Assembly: GCA_903923395.1 (NCBI GenBank)
Contig: CAIXXM010000072.1
Location: 3,849 to 67,848 of the forward strand
Source of the DNA: an uncultured Acidobacteriia bacterium
GTDB taxonomy: Bacteria; Acidobacteriota; Terriglobia; Bryobacterales; Bryobacteraceae
DNA: 64,000 nucleotides
Reading direction: 5' to 3'
How positions within the stretch are numbered: the first letter of the stretch is position 1; every line of letters begins with the position of its first letter. Positions 3,107-58,635 of the stretch are shown here, in pieces. Both the position numbers and the translations under genes were made by a program. The notes under the pieces were generated by a model. The model saw only the letters and a program-made list of their open reading frames with translations. It was not told the origin of the DNA and made no database searches.

Positions 3107-3486
3107 TACTTCGTCGCTTTCTTCTTACCGGTCACAGTGCCCTTGCGCGGGCCCTTGCGTGTACGGGCGTTGGTGTGCGTCCGCTGGCCGCGCACAGGGA
3201 GGCTCCGGCGGTGACGCAGTCCGCGGTAGGAAGCCATTTCAATGTGGCGCTTGATGTTCAGCGACACTTCCTTGCGCAAATCGCCTTCGACCGAGCCCTC
3301 TTCTTCGAGGATCTGACGGATGTGGTTGACTTCTTCCTCCGTCATGTCGGCGATCTTCTTGTTCGGGTCGATACCCGTGCGGTGCAGAAGGCTTTTCGCG
3401 CGCGTCCGCCCAATCCCGTAGATATATGTAAGGCCGATCTCAGCCCGCTTCCGCGGCGGAAGGTCGACACCAGCAATACGTGCCAT
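3106..3486 (-). CDS. rpsM: 30S ribosomal protein S13
   Basis: 126 aa. [14 protein letters not shown]... and ...[18 protein letters not shown]... Confidence 0.96.
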
Positions 3487-3504
3487 GTTTTCCTATATCC
3501 TCTT

Positions 3505-3618
3505 CTAGCCCTGACGCTGCTTGTGCTTCGGGTTCGAGCAAATGACCCGCACCACACCTTCGCGGTGGATCAGCTTGCACTTTTCACAAATCTTCTTCAC
3601 TGACGCGCGAACTTTCAT
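3505..3618 (-). CDS. rpmJ: 50S ribosomal protein L36
   Basis: Absent from the ORF track because it is under 60 aa. The reverse complement reads ATG AAA GTT CGC GCG TCA GTG AAG AAG ATT TGT GAA AAG TGC..., giving [37 protein letters not shown] with TAG at 3507-3505. It lies between infA and rpsM as expected. Confidence 0.92.
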
Positions 3619-3626
3619 TTTCTTAC

Positions 3627-3833
3627 CTAATTCCCAAGCTTCTTCAAAATCCGTCCCCTGGTCAGGTCGCGTTCTGCGAACTCAACCTCAACCCGGTCGC
3701 CCGGCAGAAGCCGGACCCAATTGCGTTCCGCAGCGCCCGCCCCATGGGCAAGTACCTTGGACTGGTTTCCCAGTTCGAGCCGAAACAACAGGCCCGGTAA
3801 CTCCTCAAGAACTACCGCTTCCACTACCGCCAA
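3627..3833 (-). CDS. infA: translation initiation factor IF-1 (divergent)
   Basis: S1-like core ...[19 protein letters not shown]...[20 protein letters not shown]. The track ORF begins at TTG 3890. An in-frame TTG at 3833 has a strong SD (CAGGAGGA, 3848-3841) 8 nt upstream and gives a normal 68-aa size. Confidence 0.8.
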
Positions 3834-3867
3834 GAAGCCTTCCTCCTGAAGTCCGCTCGAAACCCCG

Positions 3868-3911
3868 ATTAAGGGCGGGTTAGCACCCAATTAAGGGCGG
3901 GTTAGCACCCA
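3868..3911. repeat. perfect 22-bp tandem duplication (ATTAAGGGCGGGTTAGCACCCA x2) spanning the map stop codon
   Basis: 3868-3889 and 3890-3911 are identical. Copy 2 encodes the map C-terminus WVLTRP plus its stop. Copy 1 lies in the map-infA spacer. Confidence 0.95.
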
Positions 3912-4661
3912 GGGGCCCTCAGCGGTTACCGCCACACAGTGTTCAAAGTGGGCCGAGTAGCTCCCGTCCTTCGCCACCGCTGTCCAGCGGTCCTTCAAAA
4001 CCTTTGCCTCAGGCTTGCCGGCATTTACCATCGGTTCGATAGCTAATACCATGCCCTCCCGCAGCCGCGGATTTTCATTCCGCTTGTCCACGTAATTCGG
4101 TACCTGCGGCTCTTCGTGCAGCTGCGTCCCGATTCCGTGACCCACATACTCCCGTACGATTGAAAAACCGTGGCGCACCACATGCTCTTCCACCGTCCCG
4201 CAGATATCGAAGAGACGCCCACCTTCGCGAACCTTGTCAATCGCAAGTTCCAGGCTGTCCCGGGTCACCTGCATCAACTTCTTCGTCTGCTCACTTACTT
4301 CACCCACGCCAACCGTCAGCGCGGAATCACCAAAATATCCGTTGAGTGACACGCCCGTATCGATCGAGACGATGTCCCCACTCTTTAAAATCCGCTTCGG
4401 GTTGGGCATACCATGAACGATTTCCTCATTCACGGACGTGCAAAGCACGTACTTATACCGCTCCCCGGCCGCAGGCACGTAATAATTCTGAAAGGCTGGT
4501 TTCGCACCGGCATCTTTCATCATCTTCACGGCCGCCACTTCCAAGTCCCAGGTAGAGATACCTTCCTGGACCATGGCACCCAGCGACTGCAGGATCTCGT
4601 AGACCAGCAGACCGCTCTTGCGCATCTTTTCGAGCTCAGACCTGCTCTTGCGAACGATCAT
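3891..4661 (-). CDS. map: type I methionine aminopeptidase
   Basis: 256 aa. ...IVHGMPN...GDIVSIDTGV..NGYFGDSA...GHGIG..LHE... metal-ligand motifs. adk-map-infA order. Confidence 0.95.
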   Translation of the reverse strand: MIVRKSRSELEKMRKSGLLVYEILQSLGAMVQEGISTWDLEVAAVKMMKDAGAKPAFQNYYVPAAGERYKYVLCTSVNEEIVHGMPNPKRILKSGDIVSIDTGVSLNGYFGDSALTVGVGEVSEQTKKLMQVTRDSLELAIDKVREGGRLFDICGTVEEHVVRHGFSIVREYVGHGIGTQLHEEPQVPNYVDKRNENPRLREGMVLAIEPMVNAGKPEAKVLKDRWTAVAKDGSYSAHFEHCVAVTAEGPWVLTRP

Positions 4662-44223: not shown

Positions 44224-44549
44224 GCTGGGTCCGCATCACAGGTACGGCGAGCTTCCCGCTGCGACAGGGGCGCAAGGTTGTAATTCAGGAACACGAACTC
44301 GCAGTCTTCAATTTAGGCAACGGCAAGTATGCGGCAGTCGACAACGCCTGTCCCCACCGGGGCGGGCCTCTGTGTGATGGCATCGTGACCGGCGATACAG
44401 TGGTCTGCCCGCTGCACGGATGGAAGACAGACCTTGAGACAGGTCATGTTGTAAAGCCGGATATCTGCGTCAGAACCCTGCGTTATGAAGTACAGGTGGA
44501 AGACGGCATGCTCAGTATCAAGCTTCCAGCGGCGGCATCGCTATACTGA
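44220..44549 (+). CDS. nirD: nitrite reductase small subunit (Rieske-like)
   Basis: 109 aa. ...ACPHRGGPL.DG......VVCPLHGW... ATGA overlap with nirB. Confidence 0.9.
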   Translation: MSWVRITGTASFPLRQGRKVVIQEHELAVFNLGNGKYAAVDNACPHRGGPLCDGIVTGDTVVCPLHGWKTDLETGHVVKPDICVRTLRYEVQVEDGMLSIKLPAAASLY

Positions 44550-44566: not shown

Positions 44567-45547
44567 ATGACCGGAGTTCACATCCGGGGCGGTGGTATCG
44601 CTGCCCTGTGCGCGCAGCACCTGCTCACGCAGGCCGGCATCCCTACGCTGCTGGAGTCGAAGGACAGACCGCGCCTGCCCGCCATCCTTCTAAGTGACGC
44701 AGCGCTTCACCTGCTTCGCGACGTCTTTGGCAAACCCGCACTCTTCCAGGACCTTGCGCCACTTACTACCCGCGTGGTGGCCTGGCACCGGAATGAACCG
44801 CCGGTCGAACTCCCGCACCGGGCGATTGTGGTTTCAGAAGAGCAACTCCTTAGTGCATTGGCATCGGATTCCGTGCCTCCGCTGGACCCGCCAGACTGGA
44901 ACATTTACGCAGCGCGCCCGCAGAACGTTACCGAACTGCAGTTCGGTACGCGCCGCGCCGCAGCTGCATTGGTCCAACTCACTGCGGACGCCCCATTGCA
45001 GGCGTTTTGGATTGAAGCTCTTCCGCAGGGATGGCTCTTCCTTATCCCCAGAGCTGACCGCACTGGCTGGATGCTTTCGGTTGGCGTACCCGAACTGAGG
45101 GACAGTAAACTCATCGCGCCGCTGGTGCAGAGCAAACTGGAGGATGCCGGCACCTTCCCCGCCTATCCCCGCTTGCTGGAAAGTCTGCACGGCGAACGCT
45201 GGCTGGCATGCGGTACGGCTGCAATGGCATTTGATCCTATCTGCGGTGACGGCACGGCCAATGCGGTCCGGGAGGCGATATTGGCCGCGGCAGTCCTGCG
45301 CGCCATCCACCGGGGACTACCGGCGGGTCCACTGCTCGAACACTACACCAGCCGCCTGCTCTCCGGCTTCGCCAGGCACTTAGTCTTCACGCGCGACTTC
45401 TACTTATCCGGAGAGCGCGGTAACTGGTGGGTGAACGAACTCGATGGACTGCAAAGCGGGCTGGCCTGGTGCCGTGCGCAACTCGGCGCGGTTCCCGAAT
45501 ATAACTTCCGCCTTGATGGCTTTGATCTTTATCCGATCAACCAATGA
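44567..45547 (+). CDS. qhpG: FAD-dependent monooxygenase, QhpG-like (CTQ biogenesis)
   Basis: 326 aa. N-terminal dinucleotide fold IRGGGIAALCAQHLL. Translationally coupled to qhpF/qhpE-like genes and adjacent to qhpADCB. The assignment rests mostly on context. Confidence 0.65.
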   Translation: MTGVHIRGGGIAALCAQHLLTQAGIPTLLESKDRPRLPAILLSDAALHLLRDVFGKPALFQDLAPLTTRVVAWHRNEPPVELPHRAIVVSEEQLLSALASDSVPPLDPPDWNIYAARPQNVTELQFGTRRAAAALVQLTADAPLQAFWIEALPQGWLFLIPRADRTGWMLSVGVPELRDSKLIAPLVQSKLEDAGTFPAYPRLLESLHGERWLACGTAAMAFDPICGDGTANAVREAILAAAVLRAIHRGLPAGPLLEHYTSRLLSGFARHLVFTRDFYLSGERGNWWVNELDGLQSGLAWCRAQLGAVPEYNFRLDGFDLYPINQ

Positions 45548-47211
45548 CACCGATCCCCCATTGGAAGGCGTACCGGCGGCTGGGTGTCTATCTACGCCCT
45601 TACATCGCCCGGCTTTGCTTTGTCATCCTCATCAGCCTGGCATCCACGGCGCTCGGCCTGGCACAGCCTTACATTTCGAAACTCCTGATCGATAAGGCGC
45701 TGCTGGAAAAAGACTTCCATGCGCTGCTGGTCATCTCCGGACTGATGTTCGCAGCCGTCGTTTTCGGCTTTGCGTTGAACATACTCTCCAGCTACCGCTA
45801 TGTGAAGCTCTCCGCCGCGATGTTATTTGACATGCGGCTCGCTCTCTTCCGGCACCTGCAGACGCTCTCACCGCGCTTCTATGCCACGTTCCGCACGGGT
45901 GATTTGATGTCCCGGCTCAACAATGATGTTGGTGAGGTGCAACGTGTTGCTGCCGATACGCTGCTATCCGTGCTGAGCAACGTTGTATTCCTGATCGGCA
46001 GCGTCGCGATGATGCTCTGGCTGAACTGGAAACTATTCTTCGTCAGCGTGTTGCTGCTGCCTCTCAGCACGATCCTCTTTCTGCGGTACCAGAAGCGGCT
46101 TACCCTGCTTACCAAGACGCTCCGCGAGCGGGCCGCGGGACTTGGCAGCTTCATCGTCGATTCCATACTCGGCATGCGGGCGATCGTTTCACTCGACGCG
46201 CAGGAGCATGAGGCCAAGCGCTTCAAGAAACGGAATGACGAGTTCATTGAAACCATGCTGAGTGTGCAGTTGGCGTCCTTTTTATCGGGCGCTCTGCCGG
46301 GAACCATCTTAAGTGCCGCGACTGCGCTTGTTTTCCTTTACGGCGGTTATGAAGTCTTCGAAGGCACCATCACGATTGGTACGCTGGTCGCCTTCATGGC
46401 CTACCACACCCGGCTCTTATCTCCACTGCAAAACCTGATGAGCCTCACTGCCGGACTGGCATCCGCCCGCGTGTCGCTGGGACGGATCTTTGAGTTATTC
46501 GATACTCCCGCGGAAGTCCAGCCGCCTGCAGTTGCACTTACTCTTGCTCTGAAACCGCACACCATCACGCTGGACCATGTTTCCCTCACACATGGACGCA
46601 ACCCAATCCTGAAAGATATCTCACTGACAATACCCGCCGGCAGTTTCTGCGCATTGCTCGGCCCGAGCGGCGCCGGTAAATCCACCCTCGCCGACTTGCT
46701 GGTGCGCTTTCTCAACGCGGACTCTGGCTCTATCCTGATCGACGGGCTGGATATCCGCCAGATACCCCTCGGCACTCTGCGCCGCGAGATCCTGCTTGTG
46801 GAGCAATCGCCCTATCTCTTCAATGCAACCCTCGCGGAAAATATCCTTTACGCCCACCCATCTGCAACACGCGAAGCCATGATGGAAGCGGCCCGCGATG
46901 CCGGACTCGAACACTTCATCTCCACTCTGCCCGATGGCTACGAGACACAAACCGGCGAACGAGGCCTCAGCCTTTCCGTGGGAGAACGCCAGCGCATCAC
47001 CCTCGCGCGGGCGCTCCTCCGGAAGCCCAACGTTTTGATCCTTGATGAGCCAACTTCCGCTCTCGATTCCGACACGGAACAACTCATCGCCGTGAACCTC
47101 CGGCGCGTTATGCAGGGCCGGACTCTCATCGTAATCACTCACCGCCCGGCTCTCGCCGCCTTGGCCGACTTCACCGTCACCCTCAGAGATGGGAGAATCG
47201 AGACAGTATGA
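45544..47211 (+). CDS. qhpF: ABC exporter, fused permease/ATPase (QhpF-like)
   Basis: 555 aa. 6-TM ABCB-type domain, Walker A GPSGAGKST, signature LSVGERQR, Walker B ILILDEPTSALD. Confidence 0.8.
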   Translation: MTPIPHWKAYRRLGVYLRPYIARLCFVILISLASTALGLAQPYISKLLIDKALLEKDFHALLVISGLMFAAVVFGFALNILSSYRYVKLSAAMLFDMRLALFRHLQTLSPRFYATFRTGDLMSRLNNDVGEVQRVAADTLLSVLSNVVFLIGSVAMMLWLNWKLFFVSVLLLPLSTILFLRYQKRLTLLTKTLRERAAGLGSFIVDSILGMRAIVSLDAQEHEAKRFKKRNDEFIETMLSVQLASFLSGALPGTILSAATALVFLYGGYEVFEGTITIGTLVAFMAYHTRLLSPLQNLMSLTAGLASARVSLGRIFELFDTPAEVQPPAVALTLALKPHTITLDHVSLTHGRNPILKDISLTIPAGSFCALLGPSGAGKSTLADLLVRFLNADSGSILIDGLDIRQIPLGTLRREILLVEQSPYLFNATLAENILYAHPSATREAMMEAARDAGLEHFISTLPDGYETQTGERGLSLSVGERQRITLARALLRKPNVLILDEPTSALDSDTEQLIAVNLRRVMQGRTLIVITHRPALAALADFTVTLRDGRIETV

Positions 47212-47939
47212 TTTCCACGCCGCTCGATCAGGATTCGATATATCCACTGCCCTTCCCCGGCAAGCTGGGACGCGGTTTGCGCATTGCAGTCATTGACAGT
47301 GGCGTCAATCCCCGTCATCCCCACATACAGCGCCTGGATGGTGGAGTTTTCATTGATCCGGAGGGTAAGATCACTGCGGGAGAGTACCTTGACACGCTGG
47401 GCCATGGTACTGCGGTGATGGCTGCCATTCAGGAGAAAGCACCAGAGGCACAGTATTTTGCAGTAAAGCTCTTTGACACTGCTCTGCGCGCGAAAACCAG
47501 CGCATTGTTACAAGGTATCCGGTGGGCCATCGATAACTCCATGGACCTGGTGAATCTCAGTCTCGGCACGCGGAATATGCTTCGCCGCGATCACTTTCAG
47601 ACACTGGTCAACTTAGCGGCCATGAAAGGGATCACCTTAGTCGCAGCGCATGATGCCGACGGTCAACCCTGCCTCCCCGGCTGTCTCGAAGGCGTCCTCG
47701 GTGTCACGCTCGATTGGGACTGCCCCCGTAACCGGTATCACGCGGCCAATGGACTCTTCCAGGCTTCCGGCTACCCCCGGCCGATTCCCGGCTATCCACA
47801 GGAGCGAAATCTTCACGGCATCAGTTTTGCTGTGGCGAATATGACTGGACTCGCCGCGCGGGCCGCAGAAGGATTAGCAGAAAGAAAACCAATGACGATC
47901 CGCCAGGCGCTGCTGGATAACCCGACACTGGACCAGTAA
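47208..47939 (+). CDS. qhpE: small subtilisin-like (S8) serine peptidase, QhpE-like leader peptidase
   Basis: 243 aa. Asp VIDSGV, His LGHGTAV, Ser GISFAVANMTG. The small size and the coupling to qhpF match QhpE. Confidence 0.78.
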   Translation: MISTPLDQDSIYPLPFPGKLGRGLRIAVIDSGVNPRHPHIQRLDGGVFIDPEGKITAGEYLDTLGHGTAVMAAIQEKAPEAQYFAVKLFDTALRAKTSALLQGIRWAIDNSMDLVNLSLGTRNMLRRDHFQTLVNLAAMKGITLVAAHDADGQPCLPGCLEGVLGVTLDWDCPRNRYHAANGLFQASGYPRPIPGYPQERNLHGISFAVANMTGLAARAAEGLAERKPMTIRQALLDNPTLDQ

Positions 47940-47941
47940 GT

Positions 47942-49249
47942 TCAATACCGCATCAACGCCATAAACCCGAAGTCCATATGGAACTGCTGGTGGCAATGAA
48001 ACAGACTCGGGCCTGCCTGCTCCGCTAGAAAATCCGCCTCCACCTTGCTCTTTGGCGGCACCATGATCACATCTTTGAAAACACCTGAAGTCTCACGGCC
48101 CACAAAGTTTGTAATCTCCAAAGTATGCCGGTGCAGGTGCACAGGATGCGCCATGTCCGTCCGGTTATCGAACACCATGCGGTTTCGCACACCAGGCTTG
48201 GCACGGATCACATCTGTGTTGGGATAACTCTTGCCGTTGATCGCCCATAAGTTCCCGTCAGAACGCGGCTCAATCACGATTGGAATCGTATTCTCCGCAG
48301 CGGGGGCTTTCTCTGTCTTCCCGAACTTCAAGTAATCGAATGTCTTTGCGGACGGAGCCTTCCAGACAGCACGGCCTTTGGCCAGCGCGTACTCAACGAC
48401 AATCCCCGCTCCCGCCTTGCGCTGTTTGTCGTCAGTCTCACCCAACACCCAAATACCGGGATTCTTCATCTCCACGATGGCATCAACCCTTTCGCCGGGA
48501 GCCAGATCGAGCACCTCAGCCGTACCGGGTACAGCTACCGGATTACCATCCAGGGCGATCACCTTGAACACGTGACCGGACAAAGCCAACTGGTGCGGCA
48601 TGGTAGCACTCGCATTCACGATACGGAACAGGACTCTCTGGCCAGGCTTGACACGCACGGGAGTTCCAAAGCCCAACATCCTGCCATTAATGGAGTAAGA
48701 CTTGTAACTCACGTCCATTGCCATATCGGAATCGAAGGAAGGTTCCCACTCATGCAGTAACAGCGGCACTTCTTTGTCATATCTCGCCGGATCAGACTTC
48801 GGCTCAATAATCACCATCCCGAACTGACCGGTATAAGCACCGTGTTTCAGATCATGGCCGGCCATAGCATGCGTGTGATACCAGCGCGTGCCAGAGGGTC
48901 CCGGGGTAAAGGTATAGATACGGCTGTCTTTTCCCTGTATCATCGGCGTGCCTTCCTCGTGCGCGCCATCTACGTTTGGAGGGATGTGGAACCCATGCCA
49001 GTGCAGCATTTCCGGGGTTGTGGTTTCGTTGACCACTTTGACGGAAACCTCACGGCCTTCCTTCATGCGCAGCAGCGGACCAGGCACAGTGTCGTTATAG
49101 GCCAGGGTCTGCACCACCTTGCCCTTGGCGATCTCCGCCTTCACTTCACTGATCTTGATGGTGATGTCTGCCTTCGCCTGAGCCTGCGCGAAGGGCGCCA
49201 GGGCGAAGAGTCCCAGTGCTTCTCTGCGGCTTAATACCTTTGAATCCAT
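47942..49249 (-). CDS. multicopper oxidase (Tat-type signal)
   Basis: 435 aa. SRREALG twin-Arg leader. Copper motifs HWHG, WYHTH, HPVHLHRH, HCHQQFHMDFGFM. Confidence 0.9.
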   Translation of the reverse strand: MDSKVLSRREALGLFALAPFAQAQAKADITIKISEVKAEIAKGKVVQTLAYNDTVPGPLLRMKEGREVSVKVVNETTTPEMLHWHGFHIPPNVDGAHEEGTPMIQGKDSRIYTFTPGPSGTRWYHTHAMAGHDLKHGAYTGQFGMVIIEPKSDPARYDKEVPLLLHEWEPSFDSDMAMDVSYKSYSINGRMLGFGTPVRVKPGQRVLFRIVNASATMPHQLALSGHVFKVIALDGNPVAVPGTAEVLDLAPGERVDAIVEMKNPGIWVLGETDDKQRKAGAGIVVEYALAKGRAVWKAPSAKTFDYLKFGKTEKAPAAENTIPIVIEPRSDGNLWAINGKSYPNTDVIRAKPGVRNRMVFDNRTDMAHPVHLHRHTLEITNFVGRETSGVFKDVIMVPPKSKVEADFLAEQAGPSLFHCHQQFHMDFGFMALMRY

Positions 49250-50541
49250 TTGACGATGTCCCCGATGACTTCAGGAGCAACATTTCCAGCGAGACGATAC
49301 TCCGCCGGGTTGCCCTGACCCTTGCCCGCAATAAATAAGTGGTTCAGTGCCGGGTAAGTGGAGAACTCCACGTCCTTCTTCCCGGATAACACTGTCCGCC
49401 AGCGGTCAAGATCCTTCATGGTGACCTGTACATCACGCTGCCCCTGCAGGAAATACATTGGCAGTGTAAGTTTCTTCGCTTCCGTGGCTGGATCATAGCC
49501 CTTCAAATCCAGCAAATACTCATTCGGCAATCCGAGCACGATCAGAGGATTATTCTTGCCCGGACCCAAGGCCTTCACCTTGCCGACCTCTTCCTGCAAT
49601 GCCTGGAACCGCTCCCGCTCTTCGTGCCCGCCTCCGTTATGCAATTCCAGCATGTACGCGTTCTGGTCAAGAACAACATCCTCAATGGGACGCGCATTGC
49701 CCGCAAGAACAACAGCCCCGGCGAGTTTCCCGTCTTCCTTCGCAATGCGCGGCATAGCATATCCACCGAGGCTGTGGGCGATCACAAATACCCTTTTCGG
49801 ATTCACTTCGGGCTGCTTCCGAAGTAACGTTGCTGCGAGTACAGCATCCTCAACGGTCTCCTGCCTGAGCGTATAAGCGGTAGAACTCATCGCAGGACCG
49901 TGCGCTTTTGACCTCTTGTCGTATCGCAACACGACGATATTCCGTGAGGCTAAACCTTCCGCAATATCTTTGAAGATCCGGTTCGAGTAAAGAGTCTCAT
50001 CCCGGTCATTCGGACCCGGACCGTGAACCAGCACAACTGCCGCAAACGGACCCTTGCCATTCGGAATAGTCAGTGTCCCCGGTAACTGCCATTGCTGAGC
50101 ACCGAAAGTGACTTCGCGCTCATGGAAAGTCTCAGGCTTGCTATACGCCGGCCGCACCCAGATGGGTGGCAATGGCGCACCCTCGGGACGGAAATACAGG
50201 CCGCCGACCTTGCCCTCTGCCGTAATTGTGAACTGAACGTTCACCGTTACTTTGGAGAACTTGACTGGATAACTCAGCAGAGTATCCGTACCGGACTTAG
50301 CCGATACGGGGGCCTGAACGCTTTCCAGTTTGCCAAAGCCTTCCACTTCCGGCGTTACCCGGTCACGGAAGAAGGCGGGCGTCAATTTTTCTTTCGCCGC
50401 GGGTGTGAGCAACTGGATCAGTTCGGCATGCTTCCCCGCCAGTAACAAATCCAACCCGCGCCGCCCCACCACCTCAGGGGCTTCCGCCGCCAGCAGTAAC
50501 AAGCCCGCCAGCAACCCGGGAACAACAGCCCTAATCGACAA
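49231..50541 (-). CDS. secreted alpha/beta hydrolase with extra N-terminal domain
   Basis: 436 aa with a signal-like N-terminus. ...VVLVHGPGPNDRDE..., nucleophile elbow AHSLGG. Overlaps qhpB by 11 nt and the oxidase gene by 19 nt. Confidence 0.8.
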   Translation of the reverse strand: MSIRAVVPGLLAGLLLLAAEAPEVVGRRGLDLLLAGKHAELIQLLTPAAKEKLTPAFFRDRVTPEVEGFGKLESVQAPVSAKSGTDTLLSYPVKFSKVTVNVQFTITAEGKVGGLYFRPEGAPLPPIWVRPAYSKPETFHEREVTFGAQQWQLPGTLTIPNGKGPFAAVVLVHGPGPNDRDETLYSNRIFKDIAEGLASRNIVVLRYDKRSKAHGPAMSSTAYTLRQETVEDAVLAATLLRKQPEVNPKRVFVIAHSLGGYAMPRIAKEDGKLAGAVVLAGNARPIEDVVLDQNAYMLELHNGGGHEERERFQALQEEVGKVKALGPGKNNPLIVLGLPNEYLLDLKGYDPATEAKKLTLPMYFLQGQRDVQVTMKDLDRWRTVLSGKKDVEFSTYPALNHLFIAGKGQGNPAEYRLAGNVAPEVIGDIVKWIQRY

Positions 50542-51613
50542 TCACCAGTCCAGCCATCGTGATGTCATTATTGAGGTCCCAGGTCCGCTCATACTTCAGC
50601 GTCGCAGCATCATAAACTTCGATCTCGAAGCTCGCCCCGTAGATATACAGCTTCTTGGTATCCGCGGACATGCCGAAGCTGAAGCGCGACTTACAGGAGA
50701 ACTCTGCCGTACTTACGATCTTCGAAGTACCCATGTTGATGTGCCAGAATTCACAGCGCTTGTTCCCAAGGTTTCCACTTGAAACCACGGTGAATGCATC
50801 TTTCGAATCCTTAGTGACCTGCAAGCCGGACATTGCTGTTGGCGATGGGCCCACCGGAATGAACTCACTCTTCCGCGTGGCAAGATCAAACTTCGCGATG
50901 CCAAAGACCCGGTTATGAACGTAAGGATCTGAGAAGTTGAACAGGGAAACGTACTTGCCCGGCTCGCGGATGGAATCCAACTGTCCGCCGAAACCAACGT
51001 TTTCCATACCAGGAAGATCAGGCTTCGAGAGATCAATGCGCTCCACCACTTTGAAATCCGTGGTATCGAGAATCACCACGTTGCTGCGGAACTGATAGAG
51101 ATACTTGCCGTCCGGAGAAATCTCAAAGCCACCCCGGCCAAACCCGCCACCACTGGCTTCTTCCTCTTTCGCGACGTCAAAGGTCTTGGCAATCTTCTGC
51201 TGCTCCAGGTCAATGACCGTGTACTTCGCCTTGCCGACCTCATAGTGATCCACCAGCTTCGTAAGTTCCGTCGTCATGGTGTAGAAGAACTTACCCGTTG
51301 GATCAGGCGTGCCGCCATTCATGCGGTAGTGCTTGGTCGGCGTGTTGAGCACAAAGTGATTGATCACCTTGCGCGTCGCCACATCGATCACTTCTATCCC
51401 GCTGTGGTCGTTCGTTGTCACATAAATGAGCTTGCGGTCCATGGACATGCGCAAGCTGGTCGGCAGACCAGTGGTCAGTTGGATTCGCTCGACCACCTGC
51501 CCTTTATCTTCATCGAAAACCAACACGGAACTCGGGTAGGCCCCCATATACAGGAGCGCCGCCTGAGCCGGAATCGCCGCAAGCGCAGCCGCAAAAAGAC
51601 TACAAAGCCTCAT
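50531..51613 (-). CDS. qhpB: quinohemoprotein amine dehydrogenase beta subunit (7-bladed propeller), QhpB-like
   Basis: 360 aa with a signal peptide. Repeated beta-propeller blades (...KLIYVTTNDHSGIEVIDVATRKV...). The size and its position after qhpC match QhpB. Confidence 0.8.
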   Translation of the reverse strand: MRLCSLFAAALAAIPAQAALLYMGAYPSSVLVFDEDKGQVVERIQLTTGLPTSLRMSMDRKLIYVTTNDHSGIEVIDVATRKVINHFVLNTPTKHYRMNGGTPDPTGKFFYTMTTELTKLVDHYEVGKAKYTVIDLEQQKIAKTFDVAKEEEASGGGFGRGGFEISPDGKYLYQFRSNVVILDTTDFKVVERIDLSKPDLPGMENVGFGGQLDSIREPGKYVSLFNFSDPYVHNRVFGIAKFDLATRKSEFIPVGPSPTAMSGLQVTKDSKDAFTVVSSGNLGNKRCEFWHINMGTSKIVSTAEFSCKSRFSFGMSADTKKLYIYGASFEIEVYDAATLKYERTWDLNNDITMAGLVIVD

Positions 51614-51690: not shown

Positions 51691-52023
51691 CTACGGATAT
51701 ACCAGGTCCAGCTTGCGCCAGTCTTTGGTAGCCACGGCGCACTTGCTCGCCCAATCCGGATAGTTATTCAAGTGGTCTGGAACCTGCGCGGGCCAGAAGC
51801 ACGTGACATAGCAGTCATAGATATCGCGCTCCACGGGCTGACACAGACCGGCCGTGCCGCCGCCCGAATCCACTTCCCAACCCGGCGAAAATGACAGCGC
51901 GCATCCCATAGGGACATGCGGGCGGGCACCCGGGTTCTGCAAGGCAACCACATCTTCATCGAGCGAGGCCACGAACTGGTCGATTCGCTTCGCTTTCCGG
52001 TTCAACGGACGCATGTGTTTCAT
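51691..52023 (-). CDS. qhpC: quinohemoprotein amine dehydrogenase gamma subunit precursor (CTQ/thioether-crosslinked peptide)
   Basis: 110 aa. The core C-x8-E, C-x5-D, C-x3-C-x-W-x5-D has exactly the spacing of Cys7-Glu16, Cys27-Asp33, Cys37/Trp43 and Cys41-Asp49 in Paracoccus QhpC. ATGA overlap with qhpD. Confidence 0.9.
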   Translation of the reverse strand: MKHMRPLNRKAKRIDQFVASLDEDVVALQNPGARPHVPMGCALSFSPGWEVDSGGGTAGLCQPVERDIYDCYVTCFWPAQVPDHLNNYPDWASKCAVATKDWRKLDLVYP

Positions 52024-53462
52024 AAAGCTTTCCTCTCAGCAAACTGTTCCAAAAAGGCAGGATTCTTCGCACTTACCGTGCCATATATCTTCAAGCAGGT
52101 CTCCGTCCACTCGCGGATCCAATCGCAGTAGTGGAGGTTCGGGTGCCCGGTGTCGCCGTAGCGAACATAGGCTTCGTGGTGACATCCTCCCGCACAGAGC
52201 GGGCGGGCGAAGCAGGTATGGCAATCATACTTCGTGTTGATATGCCCCCGGCCGAGGAAGTCCTGTTGCTTTTCCTTGTCCATGCCGGTCGAGATATGAC
52301 CCAGCACATGCGTATCGGAATCCACAAACCGGTGGCAGGGTGCGATATCACCGGACGGCCCCACGCCAACCAGGCCCAGGCCGGCACCGCAGGGATGTGA
52401 CTTATTCACCCCTTGATACAGCTCAGCCATCGTATCGCTGACGTTCGAGAATCCATGCATCTCACCGCGAAGCGCATATTCCAGCCACTCGTCCGCCAGG
52501 ATATGGAACTGCTTCAGCACTCCGTGCATGCCCGGCTCATTAATCGCATACAAACGGTCCGGCGAAGTAGTTACTGGTGCAAAGCCAATCTCATGGAAGC
52601 CCAGCTCATCCTTCAAGTGGCGATAGATCCGGACCACATCGGTTACACCATTGGTCAGCGTCACACGGCATGTGATCGGCCGCGTCTTATGATTCGCAAT
52701 CAACGCCCTTACACGCGGTGCGATGATGTCATAGCTGCCCTTGCCGTTCGCAAACACCCGTAACTTGTCATGCAACTCCGGCGGACCGTCCATACTGACC
52801 GTCACACCAATTTTGTTCTCCGAGAGGAACTCCACAATTTGCGGAGTCAGCAGCGTTGCATTAGTTGTCAGGCTGAAGTCGATACTGCGGCCCTGTGCTG
52901 CCGCAGTCTCATTGGCATAAGTCACCACCTGCTTCAGCAACGGGAAGTTCATGAGCGTTTCGCCGCCGAAGAACGTGACATGGACTGTCTCGCGCTCACC
53001 CGATGAGGCCAACAAATAATCGATACTCTGCTTGGCCGTCTCATAATCCATGAACTTCGGCTTGCCCTCAGGTGTCGCCACCTTGTCTTCGCCGAACTCA
53101 TAGCAATACTGACAGGACAGATTGCACTGGTTAGTCAGATTGAGGACCAGCGTCATCAAAGGGAAATCGGCAGGCGGTTCCGCAACCGGCTCCGGCTTCG
53201 TATCCGCCGAGATGATGGCGCGGGACATATGCAGTTCATGCACAATCTCCTCGGCATCACCAATCGAGTAGCCCTTTTCCGTTAATGCCGCCACCAGCTG
53301 GTCATGAGGCATTCCCTGCTTGACCAGATCCAGCACAAGACGGGAAGTCTCATCCAACTGGAAGATCGCCCCTGCCGGGACTAAGTAGAGAAACGTTTCC
53401 CCTGCTGCGTCGAATTCCTTGAATTCACCGGGCGTGTAGACCCGGGCTTCCGTAGCCGTCAC
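52020..53462 (-). CDS. qhpD: radical SAM/SPASM peptide maturase QhpD
   Basis: 480 aa. CNLSCQYC radical-SAM cluster motif. C-terminal SPASM cysteines ...CGAG...APCHRF...CHTCFARPLCAGGCH... Confidence 0.9.
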   Translation of the reverse strand: MTATEARVYTPGEFKEFDAAGETFLYLVPAGAIFQLDETSRLVLDLVKQGMPHDQLVAALTEKGYSIGDAEEIVHELHMSRAIISADTKPEPVAEPPADFPLMTLVLNLTNQCNLSCQYCYEFGEDKVATPEGKPKFMDYETAKQSIDYLLASSGERETVHVTFFGGETLMNFPLLKQVVTYANETAAAQGRSIDFSLTTNATLLTPQIVEFLSENKIGVTVSMDGPPELHDKLRVFANGKGSYDIIAPRVRALIANHKTRPITCRVTLTNGVTDVVRIYRHLKDELGFHEIGFAPVTTSPDRLYAINEPGMHGVLKQFHILADEWLEYALRGEMHGFSNVSDTMAELYQGVNKSHPCGAGLGLVGVGPSGDIAPCHRFVDSDTHVLGHISTGMDKEKQQDFLGRGHINTKYDCHTCFARPLCAGGCHHEAYVRYGDTGHPNLHYCDWIREWTETCLKIYGTVSAKNPAFLEQFAERKAL

Positions 53463-55279
53463 TTTTCCACCTCAGGCTGATCCCACTTGATATAAGTCGG
53501 CACAGTTACCACCAGGTAGCTCTTCGCTGTCAGGGGCTTGCCGTCTTTGTCCTTCAAATCTTTCGCCTTGGCCACAATCCACACATCCCCGTAATTGTTC
53601 CGGCTGAACTTGCGCTCGGGGTTGGGGCCGTCAGATGCCGGTGTAAACAGGGCAGTGGGGCTGAGATAGCCCACAAAGTCTTTGTCGTCATCCCCGTACA
53701 CCGAAAGGAACTCTTCCACGGACCAAGTTACTTCCACCGGACCAAGTTCAATATCGTCAGCCGTGTGCGCCTTGCCATCCGCTCCGCGGTGATAGGCCAT
53801 GACCTCAAACTGCTGATAGCCCTTGGGATGCACCTCACTGCCCAGACGGGCTAAAGAAGTTTCGGGTAATACGCGGATGTAATCGATCTTGTCGTAAACC
53901 GCCAGTGCTCCAGGCAGAATCGCCCGGCCTGCCATTACATCGCGCTTCCCGCTGGCGGCCTTGGCGTCCACATCGATTTCCACGACCATTTCGCCCGCGG
54001 AATGCGAGACAATCTGCTTGACCTTCACGCCTGCGCCGAAATCCAAGTCTGCTGCTTTGATATCTGCAGGAACATGATCCCCGTAGATCTTGACCTTCGC
54101 CGTTGTACCGGCCTTCACAGACATACGGTCCAACATGGTCAGGTGAGTTTCCGCACTAACCCGCGTCAGAGTAACATCCAGGCCGAACTCCTGGTATTCG
54201 CCCCAGAACCAGCGGCCTTCCGCGCTCGATTGATCCGGATTGAACCACATGGCCTCGCGCATCATGTGCGCCGAGTCATCGGGCTTCATGTCGGCCGGCG
54301 GTTTTGTGGCATTTTCATTTCTGCCGCGCCAGGAGTAACCGGCATAGACCAGACCCGTACCGGTGCGGCTCAGTACAGAGCCGTCCGTGACTGAGGTCAG
54401 GGTTGCTTTTGTCTTGAACTCATCGGCGGCAGCGCCCTGCGTGATTTCCAGTGTTCCGGAGTAATCCCCTTTGCCCGGCAAGTGTGCCTTCACCAGCCAT
54501 GTTCCCGCCAGCTTCGGCGCTTTCATGCGGGTGCTCCAGGTTCCCCACTCCGGCGTATGCAGGGCAGCTGCATTACCCAGGAATTCCAATGCCACTTCCA
54601 ACGGTTCCTGCGTTGGAGCCGCAGCAGCGCCCGCGGCAGCCGTAGCCGCGCCGCGGCCCGCTCCACCACCGGCTCCACCGCCGCCACCCATACCGGACCG
54701 CCGGAAATGCGTTTCAGCCTGCGCATACAGGGCCACGTGCAAGTTAGCCAGCAAACGCCAATCATTCTTCGACCGGCGCCAGCTCATTGGCCTGCCCATC
54801 GCGTGGCAGGTAGTGCAAGCACCGCGCACGGAATCATTCGGGATATTCGTTTCGTCAATCAGCCTGTGTTCGGGAATGTACATCACCGGCTTGGCCTCTT
54901 CCGGTGCCAGCCCGTGATAAGTCGCCAGATACTTCACAACTGACCGCGCCTCGTCTGGAGTGATCGTCAAGCCATTTAGCCGCACCATGCGCTTCAGCGC
55001 CTCAGACCAGCCTTCTGGTGTTGCACGTTCCCAGGAAATGCGGGACAGATTCCCTTTGTCATCCTTCGCATGGCAGGTGCCGCACTTCTTGATGACCAGC
55101 GCATCGGTAACCGGAATACCTTCCTCCGTCTCCACATTCGCCGGTGCAGCGCCGGACGCAGCACGCCCCGCGCCTCTCTGGGCATATGCCGCCGGCAGTG
55201 TACACATCACCGCCGCAGCGAAAACAATGGCTCCGAATCTCTTCAACGAATTCCCCTCCATCCAGTTCCGCATGTCCAT
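53459..55279 (-). CDS. qhpA: quinohemoprotein amine dehydrogenase alpha subunit (dihaem cytochrome c)
   Basis: 606 aa with a signal peptide. Two CxxCH motifs (CGTCH, CTTCH) in the N-terminal domain, then beta-rich domains. Confidence 0.88.
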   Translation of the reverse strand: MDMRNWMEGNSLKRFGAIVFAAAVMCTLPAAYAQRGAGRAASGAAPANVETEEGIPVTDALVIKKCGTCHAKDDKGNLSRISWERATPEGWSEALKRMVRLNGLTITPDEARSVVKYLATYHGLAPEEAKPVMYIPEHRLIDETNIPNDSVRGACTTCHAMGRPMSWRRSKNDWRLLANLHVALYAQAETHFRRSGMGGGGGAGGGAGRGAATAAAGAAAAPTQEPLEVALEFLGNAAALHTPEWGTWSTRMKAPKLAGTWLVKAHLPGKGDYSGTLEITQGAAADEFKTKATLTSVTDGSVLSRTGTGLVYAGYSWRGRNENATKPPADMKPDDSAHMMREAMWFNPDQSSAEGRWFWGEYQEFGLDVTLTRVSAETHLTMLDRMSVKAGTTAKVKIYGDHVPADIKAADLDFGAGVKVKQIVSHSAGEMVVEIDVDAKAASGKRDVMAGRAILPGALAVYDKIDYIRVLPETSLARLGSEVHPKGYQQFEVMAYHRGADGKAHTADDIELGPVEVTWSVEEFLSVYGDDDKDFVGYLSPTALFTPASDGPNPERKFSRNNYGDVWIVAKAKDLKDKDGKPLTAKSYLVVTVPTYIKWDQPEVEK

Positions 55280-58200
55280 TAAAAAGTCAGTCTACCGCTC
55301 AATTGCAACGCCCGGGGGCCTGAGCCTTCCGCGCTCTGCATTGTTGTGATGGTACCGAATGAGCTCGTTCCAAGAGTCAGCGACGGAGTGCCGTAGTTCG
55401 GGTGGTTGAAGGCATTGGATGCCGCCACGCCAACCCGCAATTTCACCCGCTCCTTATAAGCCAGCGTACGGAACAGAGAAAGTGACACTGCTTTGGTTCC
55501 CGGACCCTGCACCGCACCCACCGGCGAATTGCCGAACCGGCCAATGTTGTTCGCCGGGATCGCAAATGCCGCAGCATTCACCCAGTTCGTGGTGCTCTGG
55601 TTCGCCGGCACGACATTCGCGCCGGACACGATATCCGCACGGCCGTTGCCGATCAAGTTCACGAAGTTCGTACCGGAAGGATCAGCGCCGCTCGCGACCA
55701 CAGTGAGAAACGGACCGCTCTGAAACAGAGCCACGCCAGCCAGTTCCCAACCGCCCGCCAGCTGATTCACGATCTTGCTCCCCGTATGCGAGAACGGCGA
55801 TTCATACAGGAAGGTGGTCTGGAAGCGGTTGCGCCGCGTAAAGGCCACGTTGCCGTAATCCAGAGCCGGATGGAACCGGTCCGTAATCGTGCCGCCGCCC
55901 GAGCCTGCAAACGCACTCGGCGCGTACCCGCCGATGTCTGACAGGTTCTTTGCAAAGTTGTAGCTCGCCTGGAACTGCAATCCCTTCGACATGCGTTTGT
56001 TGATAGACGCCGTGAACGCCTGATAGTTACTCATGCCGCCATTCGTTTCCTCGATGATTTGCTGGAAAAGCGGGAAGGGCGCGGATTTTGTAGCAACACT
56101 AAAACCAGCTGTATTTGCAGGGACTTCATTCGGGTTATCAGTCAACCCTAAGTCCGAACCATGACTCCCGTCATACGAAAGTCTTACGCCAGTTTGAAAA
56201 CCAAGATCGCGTTCCAAGGTCAAGTTCCACTGCTGCACATATGGATCTTTGTAGTGCAGTGCGTTCGACAAATCGAAGACCTGCGACCCCGGTTGCGCCA
56301 GATTCGAGGGGAAGGGATACGGGAAGGTCAACTGCGGTTTGCCGCCAACAATGCTGTTCGTAAAGCCAGCAACATCGCTGGCTTCCACCGCCCAGGAGGA
56401 CAGCAACAGATTGCCGAGTTGCGCTTCGATAAAGCGCCCATAACCACCGCGGATTACGGTCTTCCCGTCGGCCGTCGCCCGCCATGCGAAGCCGATGCGT
56501 GGCGCGAAGTCAGCCTTCGCCGAGTAGCGCAAGCTCTGGGGAATTCCCGCCTGACTTGCCGTAAGGATCGGTGTTGGCGCAATCGACTGCGCGAAGGCCG
56601 GATTGATCAGCGAATAGCCCTTGTCCGGCACCACCACCGCTCCATGCACCGTAACACCATTCACCACGTTGTAGACGTCCGGCAGTAAGTTCGCCGTGTT
56701 GGAGTTATGATCCTGGAACATCGGATGATATTCCCACCGCATACCGTAATTGATCGTCAGGCGGTTCGTCACCTTGAAATCATCCTGTACGTAGAATGCG
56801 TAGCTGGCCCCGTAACCATTGGTGTCCGGGTTCAAGACAGTGGAAAGAGTGTCCGAATCCGGTATGCCCAACAGGAATGCTCCGTAAGCATTGCCAATCA
56901 GGGAACTGGTGACAGAATTATTGAACGTATAGGAGCCCAGCCGCTGACTTGCGAACACGTTCGTATAGAGCGCCTTGAGATACCGGTAATCACCACCGAA
57001 CTTGATGGTATGCTTGCCCTTGGTCATCGTCAGGTTGTCCAGGACCTGCCAGGTGCTGGTCTGCGAGATCGATGAGGCACCGCCGCCCGTGCTTTGGAAC
57101 CCTGAGATCTTGAAGTTGGGAACTGCATTTCCGGCAGGAGGTGCCTGCGGCAAGTAAGACGTCAAGCCAAGCAGGTTCGCCATATCAGTAGCAAGAACCC
57201 CATAACTTGTCGAAGCATTTGAACTCGTCATGCCCGCCCGGATTTCATTCACAAAGTGTGACCCGATTACCCAGTTATGAGCAATCGTCACCCCTTTGTC
57301 TTTCTCAGGCTTGGTGAATCCGCCGAGCAGAGCAGAGCCCGTAGGCGTCGTCTGCGCCAGCTTGGATTTGTATGTGAACCGGACGAAGACGTTCTGGTTC
57401 GATGTGATCTTCTGGTCACCGCGAACGTCCCCCTGGTTGCTCGAAATCGGGGTGGGGAAGTTCGTTACGAAATTGTTGGCAATGGCGGTGGGGCTTCCGT
57501 TATTGGGCGTGGGATAGAGATACTTCAGTGCACCCAGAGACAACGGAGCTATCCGGCTCACGGGAATCTGATTTCCCACAAATGGGGAGCCGTTTGTCGG
57601 GTCGAGCACCGCTTTTGAATATGCGGATAAATCGCCGCTCCGAAGAGCCAGCGACGGTACGCTCTCGGTCAAGACCTGCTGACTCGGCAAGCGAAGCCCC
57701 TCGTAGGTGCCAAAGAAGAAGGTCTTGTCTTTCCCGTTGTAGATCTTGGGCAGCATCAACGGACCACCCACATAGCCGCCAAAGTCATTCATATCCAGTT
57801 TGGGAACGGTCGCGCTGAATGTGTTGCGCGCATTGAACGCCGTGTTCTGATTATTCTCAAACAAGCCGCCGTGTAATTTATTCGTTCCGCTCTTTGAGAT
57901 CGTAGTAATATCGCTGATCCCGCCGAACTCGGCGCTGTTGTTGATTTCGCTGACCCGGATCTCTGCGATGGCATCGAAAGAAGGAAATAACTCCGAGATA
58001 GGCGCGCTGTTTCTGGGACTCATCGAGCTGATGCCGTCGATGGTCACCGATAACATACTCGGCTTCGACCCCGCTACGGATAAGTTCCCGCTGTTGTCCA
58101 CCACAACACCAGGCTGCGTCGTGAGCGTTGAAAAAGCACTGGTGGAACCGCCCGCTCTGGACCCAATCGCCACAGGAAGATCCGTCAACTCCCTGCCGAG

Positions 58201-58635
58201 TTTCGTCTCCGCAATGTTGGATACTTCGGTACTGATCGGTGCTTCCATCACCGTGCTTACACTTACACTGCTTGTCTGTGAGGCCAGCGGCAGTTTGCCA
58301 TCAATACGCACCGTTTCACGCGACGTCAACTCCACAGCCTTGTAAATCAATTCCTGGAACCCGGGGGCCTGCATGGTCACTTCATAAGTGCCAGGCTCCA
58401 TATTCACCAGGCTGTATTCGCCCTTTCCGTCCGTCAACACGGACCGCGTCGTGGACGTGGCAGTGTTCGTCGCCGTCACCTTGCAAGCCGCTACGAGCGA
58501 CCCGGAAGGATCATGCACGGTTCCCACGAAGGTTCCAAATGTGGATTGTGCCCGGCCTGCTGCCGGAAGAAGAAGACAGACTGTAAGACAGGCGGCCTGC
58601 AGGAATCGCGTAATACCGTTGTAAGTGAATACCAT
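55279..58635 (-). CDS. TonB-dependent receptor-like outer-membrane protein with N-terminal carboxypeptidase-regulatory-like domain (Oar-like)
   Basis: 1118 aa with a signal peptide. ...GTVHDPSGSLVAACKVTATNTATS..R.V.TD..G.Y.L.N..PGTYEV... (CarboxypepD_reg-like), then plug/barrel-like sequence ending ...LQLSGRLTF (C-terminal Phe). Confidence 0.88.
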   Translation of the reverse strand: MVFTYNGITRFLQAACLTVCLLLPAAGRAQSTFGTFVGTVHDPSGSLVAACKVTATNTATSTTRSVLTDGKGEYSLVNMEPGTYEVTMQAPGFQELIYKAVELTSRETVRIDGKLPLASQTSSVSVSTVMEAPISTEVSNIAETKLGRELTDLPVAIGSRAGGSTSAFSTLTTQPGVVVDNSGNLSVAGSKPSMLSVTIDGISSMSPRNSAPISELFPSFDAIAEIRVSEINNSAEFGGISDITTISKSGTNKLHGGLFENNQNTAFNARNTFSATVPKLDMNDFGGYVGGPLMLPKIYNGKDKTFFFGTYEGLRLPSQQVLTESVPSLALRSGDLSAYSKAVLDPTNGSPFVGNQIPVSRIAPLSLGALKYLYPTPNNGSPTAIANNFVTNFPTPISSNQGDVRGDQKITSNQNVFVRFTYKSKLAQTTPTGSALLGGFTKPEKDKGVTIAHNWVIGSHFVNEIRAGMTSSNASTSYGVLATDMANLLGLTSYLPQAPPAGNAVPNFKISGFQSTGGGASSISQTSTWQVLDNLTMTKGKHTIKFGGDYRYLKALYTNVFASQRLGSYTFNNSVTSSLIGNAYGAFLLGIPDSDTLSTVLNPDTNGYGASYAFYVQDDFKVTNRLTINYGMRWEYHPMFQDHNSNTANLLPDVYNVVNGVTVHGAVVVPDKGYSLINPAFAQSIAPTPILTASQAGIPQSLRYSAKADFAPRIGFAWRATADGKTVIRGGYGRFIEAQLGNLLLSSWAVEASDVAGFTNSIVGGKPQLTFPYPFPSNLAQPGSQVFDLSNALHYKDPYVQQWNLTLERDLGFQTGVRLSYDGSHGSDLGLTDNPNEVPANTAGFSVATKSAPFPLFQQIIEETNGGMSNYQAFTASINKRMSKGLQFQASYNFAKNLSDIGGYAPSAFAGSGGGTITDRFHPALDYGNVAFTRRNRFQTTFLYESPFSHTGSKIVNQLAGGWELAGVALFQSGPFLTVVASGADPSGTNFVNLIGNGRADIVSGANVVPANQSTTNWVNAAAFAIPANNIGRFGNSPVGAVQGPGTKAVSLSLFRTLAYKERVKLRVGVAASNAFNHPNYGTPSLTLGTSSFGTITTMQSAEGSGPRALQLSGRLTF

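Follow-up and report, generated by a model that had tools for sequence, protein, structure and literature searches.

Why do genes for a serine hydrolase and a multicopper oxidase lie, with overlapping reading frames, directly behind those of an amine dehydrogenase? The question is raised by the window, a stretch of 64,000 nucleotides (nt) from an uncultured Acidobacteriia bacterium (contig CAIXXM010000072.1), part of which is a Bryobacterales variant of the gene cluster for quinohaemoprotein amine dehydrogenase (QHNDH). There, qhpA, qhpD, qhpC and qhpB are followed by the gene HYD, for an alpha/beta hydrolase, and by the gene MCO, for a multicopper oxidase (MCO). The qhp operon has so far been treated as a fixed set, qhpABCDEFGR, whose electrons go to soluble cytochromes or azurin. 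The same gene set is given as canonical in PMC7876137, in agreement with the initial annotation of the window, in which HYD and MCO were placed outside the canonical operon. Literature searches on QHNDH with multicopper oxidase and on QHNDH in Acidobacteria, full text included, found no description of the Bryobacterales arrangement and no work connecting QHNDH to a multicopper oxidase.

Linkage of HYD and MCO to the qhp genes

HYD and MCO are very probably members of the qhp operon and functionally coupled to QHNDH. In the window, they end a block of seven tightly packed genes on the minus strand, namely OMP (for a TonB-dependent-receptor-like outer-membrane protein), qhpA, qhpD, qhpC, qhpB, HYD and MCO. 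The junctions measure -1 nt from OMP to qhpA, -4 from qhpA to qhpD, -4 from qhpD to qhpC, +77 from qhpC to qhpB, -11 from qhpB to HYD and -19 from HYD to MCO. Both of the last two overlaps, from which the initial annotation had argued for operon membership, are confirmed by direct reading of the sequence. Thus, qhpB stops with the TAG at 50533-50531 and the TTG at 50541 is the first HYD start past an in-frame TGA; HYD stops with the TAA at 49233-49231 and MCO starts with the ATG at 49249. On the plus strand, qhpE, qhpF and qhpG converge on MCO, the stops of qhpE and MCO being 2 nt apart, which places HYD and MCO inside the qhp cluster. An independent promoter or terminator between the genes had been named beforehand as an argument against a common operon. 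A sigma-70 consensus scan found no promoter-like site on the minus strand at 47.9-51.6 kb, although this consensus may not suit Acidobacteria, and terminator-like sites in the same interval are weak and fewer than in shuffled sequence (10 against 14.2).

The linkage was followed in related DNA from three sides, those of the qhp genes, MCO and HYD. QhpD was used to query species-representative genomes, which gave 80 loci with 10-kb flanks, annotated by tblastn with the window proteins, and MCO was used to query metagenome contigs, which likewise gave 80 loci. The close relatives are metagenome-assembled genomes (MAGs) of Bryobacterales (Acidobacteriota). Among the 59 informative Bryobacterales-like qhp loci of the species-representative genomes, HYD is found in 15 and MCO in 12, which corresponds to both genes in 10 loci, HYD only in 5 (two of them ending at a contig edge) and MCO only in 2. 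Neither gene was found in any of the 14 qhp loci from Sphingomonadales, Pseudomonadota and Acidobacteriaceae.

On the MCO side, the proteins at least 58% identical to the window MCO fall into one clade (the qhp clade), which a single branch of the MCO tree splits from a sister clade. All MCO homologues of at least 61% identity with readable upstream DNA adjoin qhp genes, and almost none do so at 59% or below. Linkage to qhp holds for 42 of the 45 informative loci of the qhp clade, the window and L164/L165 being counted. In these 42 loci, MCO follows HYD in 33, qhpB in five, qhpE in two and qhpD in one, and precedes OMP-qhpA in one. Homologues of HYD number more than 100 at 55-71% identity. In every examined locus with readable upstream DNA, HYD lies directly behind qhpB, as it does in the three of three homologues sampled on long contigs, one with MCO and two without.

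The overlaps themselves recur. Independent gene calls give both the 11-nt and the 19-nt overlap in L001, whose MCO is 91% identical to that of the window, and in L164/L165, whose HYD is 71% identical and where the synteny of the window is complete. The qhpB/HYD overlap of 11 nt is also present in L086, and the candidate starts of about 35 linked loci either overlap the preceding stop or fall within about 40 nt of it. Many species of Bryobacterales, and many metagenome contigs, keep HYD and MCO beside qhp, the proteins being 53-71% identical. Since the linkage is seen with proteins that are about 55-65% identical, in five different orders of the genes and amid differing outside neighbours, it points to selection for co-location and not to recent common descent. 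Moreover, HYD and MCO are each found with qhp without the other, so that each appears to be tied to QHNDH and not to its partner. The co-conservation in related genomes that the initial annotation had proposed to look for is therefore present and, together with the overlaps, strongly supports its view of both genes as operon members. Its description of a self-contained module was overstated, as both genes are missing from the majority of related qhp operons and several carry one only.

Individual loci display variants of the arrangement. In L003 (6637-11275), an OMP gene, whose product is 73% identical to the window OMP, directly precedes MCO with no qhp genes, which looks like a deletion of qhpADCB-HYD. 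L002, with MCO alone, and L166, with qhp-HYD but without MCO and with fragmented genes, share the ENA assembly ERZ25039475 and may represent one genome in which MCO moved. L048, L094, L096 and L097 carry, besides the HYD-MCO operon, another, divergent qhp operon that converges on it, with a single qhpE between the two; the products of this additional operon are 41% (QhpA), 50% (QhpD), 54% (QhpC) and 31% (QhpB) identical to those of the window. A tandem duplication of qhpB, giving qhpB-qhpB-HYD-MCO, is found in L010 (11853-14063) and L088. In L025 (14324-16279), a pyrroloquinoline quinone (PQQ) alcohol/aldehyde dehydrogenase with an N-terminal cytochrome c is encoded behind HYD. In L042, L050 and L064, qhpB is followed by a gene pair that, judged from the sequences alone, resembles an aldehyde oxidoreductase, with a small subunit carrying a twin-arginine leader and 2Fe-2S-type Cys motifs and a molybdopterin-type large subunit of about 820 amino acids (aa). 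The PQQ dehydrogenase and this pair could be periplasmic enzymes handling the product.

The multicopper oxidase and its haem-c neighbours

By its predicted domains and motifs, MCO is a bona fide three-domain multicopper oxidase outside the CopA and CueO families. It matches Cu-oxidase_3 (PF07732), Cu-oxidase (PF00394) and Cu-oxidase_2 (PF07731), all above cut-offs. The export signals described earlier for both proteins were found again, with a twin-arginine leader in MCO (MDSKVLSRREALGLFALAPFAQAQA; motif TRR(E/Q)LL in homologues) and, judged by eye, a hydrophobic, Sec-like leader at the N-terminus of HYD (MSIRAVVPGLLAGLLLLAAEA). All four copper-binding motifs listed in the initial annotation are present, with ten His and one Cys ligands, and the ligands H83, H85, H125, H127, H368, H371, H373, H418, C419, H420 and H424 are invariant in 36 homologues. 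The Met of the last motif (HCHxxxHxxxGxM) should not be taken for the axial ligand of the type-1 copper, a position that the alignment assigns to Phe429. In an ungapped alignment of the type-1 copper motif HCHQQFHMDFGFM (residues 418-430, window 47960-47998) with the Thermus laccase motif HCHIVEHEDRGMM, Phe429 stands at the axial position (Cys+10) and Met430 at +11. Except for one residue (Phe427, HMDxGFM), this motif is invariant across both clades, and the aligned motif of 6VOW/6VOX has a Leu at the axial position, followed by Met. A non-coordinating axial residue is unusual in bacterial multicopper oxidases and typical of high-potential fungal laccases; the laccase of Trametes versicolor, with the motif HCHIDFHLEAGF, has a Phe at the axial type-1 position.

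The confident AlphaFold model of MCO (predicted local distance difference test, pLDDT, 85.4) has compact bacterial and fungal three-domain laccases as its Foldseek neighbours, with template modelling (TM) scores of 0.7-0.79 and 18-23% identity. Bacterial laccase-like enzymes, including Thermus thermophilus Tth-MCO (2XU9), Pseudomonas thermotolerans (6VOW), Sulfurimonas (8Z59) and CueO, have in common with it three cupredoxin domains, a length of about 430-450 aa, a twin-arginine translocation (TAT) signal and the full set of ligands (Foldseek TM 0.7-0.74, 20-30% identity). The window MCO differs from them by the lack of a Met-rich hairpin or helix, by an axial Phe in place of Met and by its qhp-dedicated context. 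An identity as CopA or CueO, the former having been raised in the initial annotation as a copper-resistance role that would speak against its proposal, is ruled out by family scores, Met content and gene context. MCO scores 165 against a cut-off of 479 with the CopA model TIGR01480 and 108 against 525 with the CueO model NF008205; no Met-rich segment was found in it, the maximum being 3 Met per 30-aa window; its neighbours are qhp genes, and no copB, copC, copD or cus genes were found near it.

QHNDH is reported to pass its electrons to a cytochrome c or to a blue-copper protein such as azurin (PMC2147049), the redox partners cited for it not being oxidases. In the scheme proposed for the window, MCO would take the role that azurin has in Pseudomonas, with the addition of its own trinuclear copper cluster reducing O2 to water. 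A primary amine, possibly imported as a larger conjugate via OMP, would be oxidised by the cysteine tryptophylquinone (CTQ) of QhpC, from which the electrons would travel over the two QhpA haems and reach the type-1 copper of MCO. Together, QHNDH and MCO would thus act as an amine:O2 oxidoreductase that produces water and does not depend on the respiratory chain, which would suit nitrogen scavenging, while HYD would free the QHNDH substrate, in the periplasm, from a precursor bound as an ester or amide. According to their predicted signals, all parts are periplasmic or outer-membrane proteins. Of the mechanisms considered, this one is the best supported, the chance that MCO accepts electrons from QhpA and reduces O2 at its trinuclear cluster being put a little below even.

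The neighbours of MCO outside the qhp clade bear on this role. None of the sister-clade MCO loci is linked to qhp. In 29 of these 48 loci, MCO adjoins a gene for a monohaem cytochrome c of about 136 aa (PF00034/PF13442), which in 22 of the 48 lies directly upstream on the same strand. Between the cytochrome c stop and the MCO start there are 4-9 nt in L133, L137, L146, L157, L161 and L163, and the spacing is below 50 nt in most other sister-clade loci with a called open reading frame (ORF). No monohaem cytochrome c of about 136 aa was found in the qhp-clade loci. With a free cytochrome in the sister clade and the dihaem QHNDH in the qhp clade, genes of the MCO family thus recurrently lie next to a gene for a c-type haem protein, and this neighbourhood gives indirect support, at the level of gene context, to MCO as the protein that would reoxidise QhpA.

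A comparable pair is known from Thioclava, which upregulates a "cytochrome c-multicopper oxidase operon" while taking up electrons (2026 study, PMC13488337). The sister-clade pairs resemble this pmcA operon of Thioclava electrotropha, to which they are likened by gene arrangement alone, in that the gene of a TAT-exported three-domain MCO lies beside that of a periplasmic c-type haem protein, an adjacency which suggests that haem c donates to the type-1 copper. Sister-clade and window MCOs have all copper motifs in common, including HLHRH and HCHQQFHMDxGFM, whereas the haem partner in the window would be the dihaem subunit of a dehydrogenase instead of a free monohaem cytochrome. The electron sink for the dihaem subunit imagined in the initial annotation is therefore plausible in view of the sister-clade pairing and of the qhp link kept in loci without HYD. 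In vitro electron transfer from cytochrome c to bilirubin oxidase has reportedly been described, to go by the title of a work of Dronov et al. from 2008 that is cited in PMC3278367.

Among the sister-clade loci, L161 carries the cytochrome c gene at 2827-3237 and MCO at 3242-4603, and further cytochrome c-MCO pairs are found in L136, L147, L152, L156 and L160. In some loci of this clade, a protein with a dihaem cytochrome plus a cupredoxin and a radical-SAM (S-adenosylmethionine) gene are encoded nearby. A relationship of the sister-clade cytochrome c with the haem domain of QhpA was considered and set aside, as the haem motif alone aligns (E = 0.011, 12 residues), which is uninformative.

Several points weigh against MCO as the oxidase of QhpA. 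The MCO tree is a neighbour-joining tree of 95 MCOs with no bootstrap support, and the linkage was scored solely where contigs were long enough. About 75-80% of the related qhp operons are devoid of MCO, some having HYD only, so that MCO is not required for QHNDH function, and the qhp-clade MCOs of L002, L003 and L114 do not lie beside qhp genes. Another haem protein encoded in qhp loci, called c9, could be the true electron acceptor of QHNDH. Characterised multicopper oxidases have mostly phenols, metal ions or bilirubin as substrates, and O2 reduction in the periplasm conserves no energy. Finally, the Phe at the axial position and the feruloyl-esterase-like neighbours of HYD fit a phenol-directed laccase/esterase pair equally well.

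The c9 protein is secreted, has a length of about 370 aa and a single CxxCH, and weakly matches squalene-hopene cyclases. It is encoded in 24 of the 80 qhp loci, for example at L007:3479-4591, beside OMP or qhpG, is absent from the window and could be a QHNDH-associated cytochrome. It occurs together with MCO in five qhp loci, and the idea that MCO and c9 are mutually exclusive as alternative acceptors was dismissed for this reason.

The hydrolase and the competing explanations

HYD is, from its sequence features, an exported and active-looking EstD-like serine hydrolase with an intact predicted triad. It matches the Pfam families Hydrolase_4, Abhydrolase_6 and Peptidase_S9 and has, at its N-terminus, an additional alpha+beta domain of about 100 aa. 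With the EstD model NF041096, it scores 339.5 bits over the full length, under the equivalog cut-off of 600, and its residues 33-435 align to model positions 32-419 of 421, the extra domain included. The elbow H256-S257-L258-G259-G260 (HSLGG, with S257 as nucleophile), D370 and the oxyanion residues H173-G174 are invariant in 32 homologues, of which at least 90% also keep H401. The full-length alignment, the GxSxG-type elbow and the Ser-Asp-His triad are thus common to HYD and to EstD of Thermotoga maritima; HYD differs in scoring below the equivalog level, in being exported according to its leader and in standing invariably behind qhpB.

The structure model of HYD (pLDDT 87.5) has an alpha/beta hydrolase fold. 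The fold neighbours of its catalytic domain include PET46, a thermophilic lipase, feruloyl/cinnamoyl esterases of Lactobacillus, puromycin hydrolase and acylaminoacyl peptidases, at 13-21% identity, and the sequence search of solved structures gave weak matches (E ~1e-5 or weaker). Neither the sequence search of solved structures nor the fold search, which returned generic alpha/beta hydrolases, fixes the substrate of HYD. The release by HYD of the QHNDH amine substrate from a larger ester or amide is possible but doubtful; the fixed place after qhpB, the periplasmic components and the TonB-type porter heading the operon fit it. A wider proposal is about as tentative: the members of the MCO family would be haem-c:O2 oxidoreductases, soluble and periplasmic, one clade of which would be the dedicated terminal oxidase of QHNDH, and HYD and the TonB-type porter would feed it with conjugated amines, in a nitrogen-scavenging locus analogous to a polysaccharide utilisation locus.

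The same fold neighbours lead to another explanation, which is unlikely and nevertheless survives best among the competitors. Here, HYD would be a feruloyl/cinnamoyl-type esterase or an amidase and MCO a true laccase that takes no electrons from QhpA. Both enzymes would have as substrates conjugates of amines with phenolics, for instance tyramine or putrescine in amide linkage with a hydroxycinnamoyl group, or else aromatic products of the amine or aldehyde type, MCO oxidising or detoxifying the phenolic part and QHNDH deaminating the amine. PET46 and the ferulic/cinnamoyl esterases of Lactobacillus are indeed among the best structural neighbours of HYD, but HYD resembles feruloyl esterases only distantly (15-18% identity, TM ~0.44 on the query), and lipases or S9 peptidases at least as closely. 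On the MCO side, the axial Phe429 and the nearest solved structures, which are laccases active on phenolics, agree with such chemistry, as do the habitats rich in plant phenolics inferred from MAG names (peat, palsa, SPRUCE). Multicopper oxidases of lactic acid bacteria are also said to degrade biogenic amines such as tyramine. However, HYD and MCO do not form an obligate pair, as MCO directly follows qhpB in 5 loci and HYD occurs without MCO in at least 5, and the partner of the sister-clade MCOs is a cytochrome c and not an esterase.

More improbable is a role in maturation or maintenance, where MCO, perhaps with HYD, would make or repair active periplasmic QHNDH, either by oxidising CTQ from its dihydroxy-Trp or quinol form to give the quinone or by reactivating an over-reduced or adducted enzyme. 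CTQ formation by QhpD and QhpG probably precedes export, whereas MCO is TAT-exported. In the window, QhpG is a short, divergent form (66 bits for a cut-off of 240), but many Bryobacterales qhp operons without MCO encode the same short form. In addition, qhpD is retained in all MCO loci with enough flank, and qhpE, qhpF and qhpG are retained wherever the contig extends. For the same reasons, MCO was rejected as a substitute for qhpG in CTQ biogenesis, as qhpG is retained in MCO loci and is just as short in those without MCO. The cytochrome c pairing of the sister clade points to electron transfer and not to cofactor biogenesis. A precedent exists in the operons of LodA-like group ID CTQ enzymes, which hold MCO and tyrosinase genes and for which a functional link of the MCO was suspected by the authors (PMC4417212). 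These operons are likewise CTQ quinoprotein clusters with an MCO gene, the MCOs being likened by gene content alone; LodA and GoxA belong to another quinoprotein family, are oxidases that reduce O2 themselves and have no haem, and the window has no tyrosinase. Tryptophan hydroxylation in LodA appears to be copper-dependent according to the discussion of PMC7876137, whereas QhpD and QhpG form CTQ in vitro without any oxidase according to the same paper.

Last, a cuprous or ferrous oxidase co-inherited with HYD without functional link to qhp is highly improbable: the top NCBIfam match of MCO is the copper_res_A subfamily, followed by CueO, and L003 (OMP then MCO) and L002 (MCO alone) are without qhp genes, but both family scores lie far under their cut-offs, Met-rich segments and nearby cop or cus genes are lacking as described above, linkage in 42 of 45 loci in five gene orders at about 60% identity goes beyond inertia alone, and the translational overlaps are conserved.

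Coming back to MCO as the protein reoxidising the haems of QhpA, the retention of MCO and of a serine hydrolase inside the qhp operon concerns the Bryobacterales of peat and acidic soils, a large and environmentally abundant lineage, and suggests that the electron path ends differently here and that the substrates may be of another class. If MCO does reoxidise these haems, the locus would be a natural example of a dehydrogenase coupled to an oxygen reductase of the laccase type, a design of interest for amine biosensors and biocathodes that work without a mediator. A widespread and unstudied MCO family encoded beside c-type cytochromes would also gain a function, and it would become easier to explain the release of ammonium from organic amines by Acidobacteria where soils are poor in nitrogen. 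Otherwise, the conserved linkage still reveals two accessory factors that are new to amine catabolism.

Layout of the cluster in the window

The features of the cluster are collected below. With the canonical qhp operon of Paracoccus denitrificans and Pseudomonas putida, it has in common qhpA, qhpC, qhpD, qhpE, qhpF, a probable qhpB and a qhpG-like flavoprotein gene, as well as a periplasmic enzyme with a dihaem alpha subunit. It differs by the addition of HYD and MCO, overlapping after qhpB, and of a TonB-type OMP gene at the head, by the position of qhpE, qhpF and qhpG on the opposite strand, by the short qhpG and by qhpB and qhpG scores under the NCBIfam cut-offs.

Features of the qhp-HYD-MCO cluster, in window coordinates
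Feature	Coordinates	Strand	Basis
OMP, TonB-dependent-receptor-like, operon gene 1	55279..58635	-	CarboxypepD_reg + OMP_b-brl_4: PF25183 692 bits, PF13620 63 bits
qhpA, dihaem alpha subunit	53459..55279	-	TIGR03908 539 bits vs cut-off 274
qhpD, radical-SAM/SPASM maturase	52020..53462	-	TIGR03906 642 bits vs cut-off 453
qhpC, gamma subunit carrying CTQ	51691..52023	-	NF037958 143 bits vs cut-off 50; PF08992
qhpB, probable beta-propeller subunit	50531..51613	-	TIGR03907 66 bits, under cut-off 223; syntenic
HYD, predicted exported EstD-like alpha/beta serine hydrolase	49231..50541	-	436 aa, TTG start; Pfam, NF041096
MCO, predicted TAT-exported three-domain laccase-like multicopper oxidase	47942..49249	-	435 aa, ATG start; Pfam
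qhpE, subtilisin-like leader protease	47208..47939	+	NF049966 173 bits vs cut-off 165
qhpF-type ABC exporter	45544..47211	+	Pfam ABC_membrane + ABC_tran; synteny, 52-68% identity in related loci
qhpG-like short flavoprotein, 326 aa	44567..45547	+	NF049967 66 bits, under cut-off 240; syntenic
qhpB stop / HYD start overlap, 11 nt	50531..50541	-	direct sequence reading
HYD stop / MCO start overlap, 19 nt	49231..49249	-	direct sequence reading

An OMP gene is placed upstream of qhpA in many Bryobacterales qhp loci. QhpA matches the four Qn_am_d Pfam domains (PF09098, PF14930, PF09099 and PF09100) and has two CxxCH motifs, CGTCH at residue 66 and CTTCH at residue 155. Between its haem domain and domain II, residues 196-222 (window 54614-54694) form a low-complexity linker rich in Gly and Ala (GMGGGGGAGGGAGRGAATAAAGAAAAP), which contributes to the excess of about 90 aa over the family model. 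Besides its expected position, the assignment of qhpB is supported by a beta-propeller-type Pfam match and by 49-63% identity to the gene at the same position in qhp operons of Sphingomonadales. The qhpG-like gene aligns with the QhpG model at positions 159-327 of 423 only, and a short qhpG of the same length and position is the norm among Bryobacterales qhp loci. No gene for an AraC-type regulator (qhpR) was seen directly flanking the cluster, the whole window not having been searched for one.

A split qhpG was considered and rejected, as the 109-aa ORF at 44220-44549 encodes a NirD-type Rieske protein beside NirB (41815-44223) and not an N-terminal piece of qhpG. These nirB and nirD genes lie between qhpG and the gene of a 913-aa S9 peptidase (39024-41765). 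In L164/L165, the orthologous S9 peptidase gene directly abuts qhpG, so that the peptidase may be part of an extended cluster and nirBD may be an insertion.

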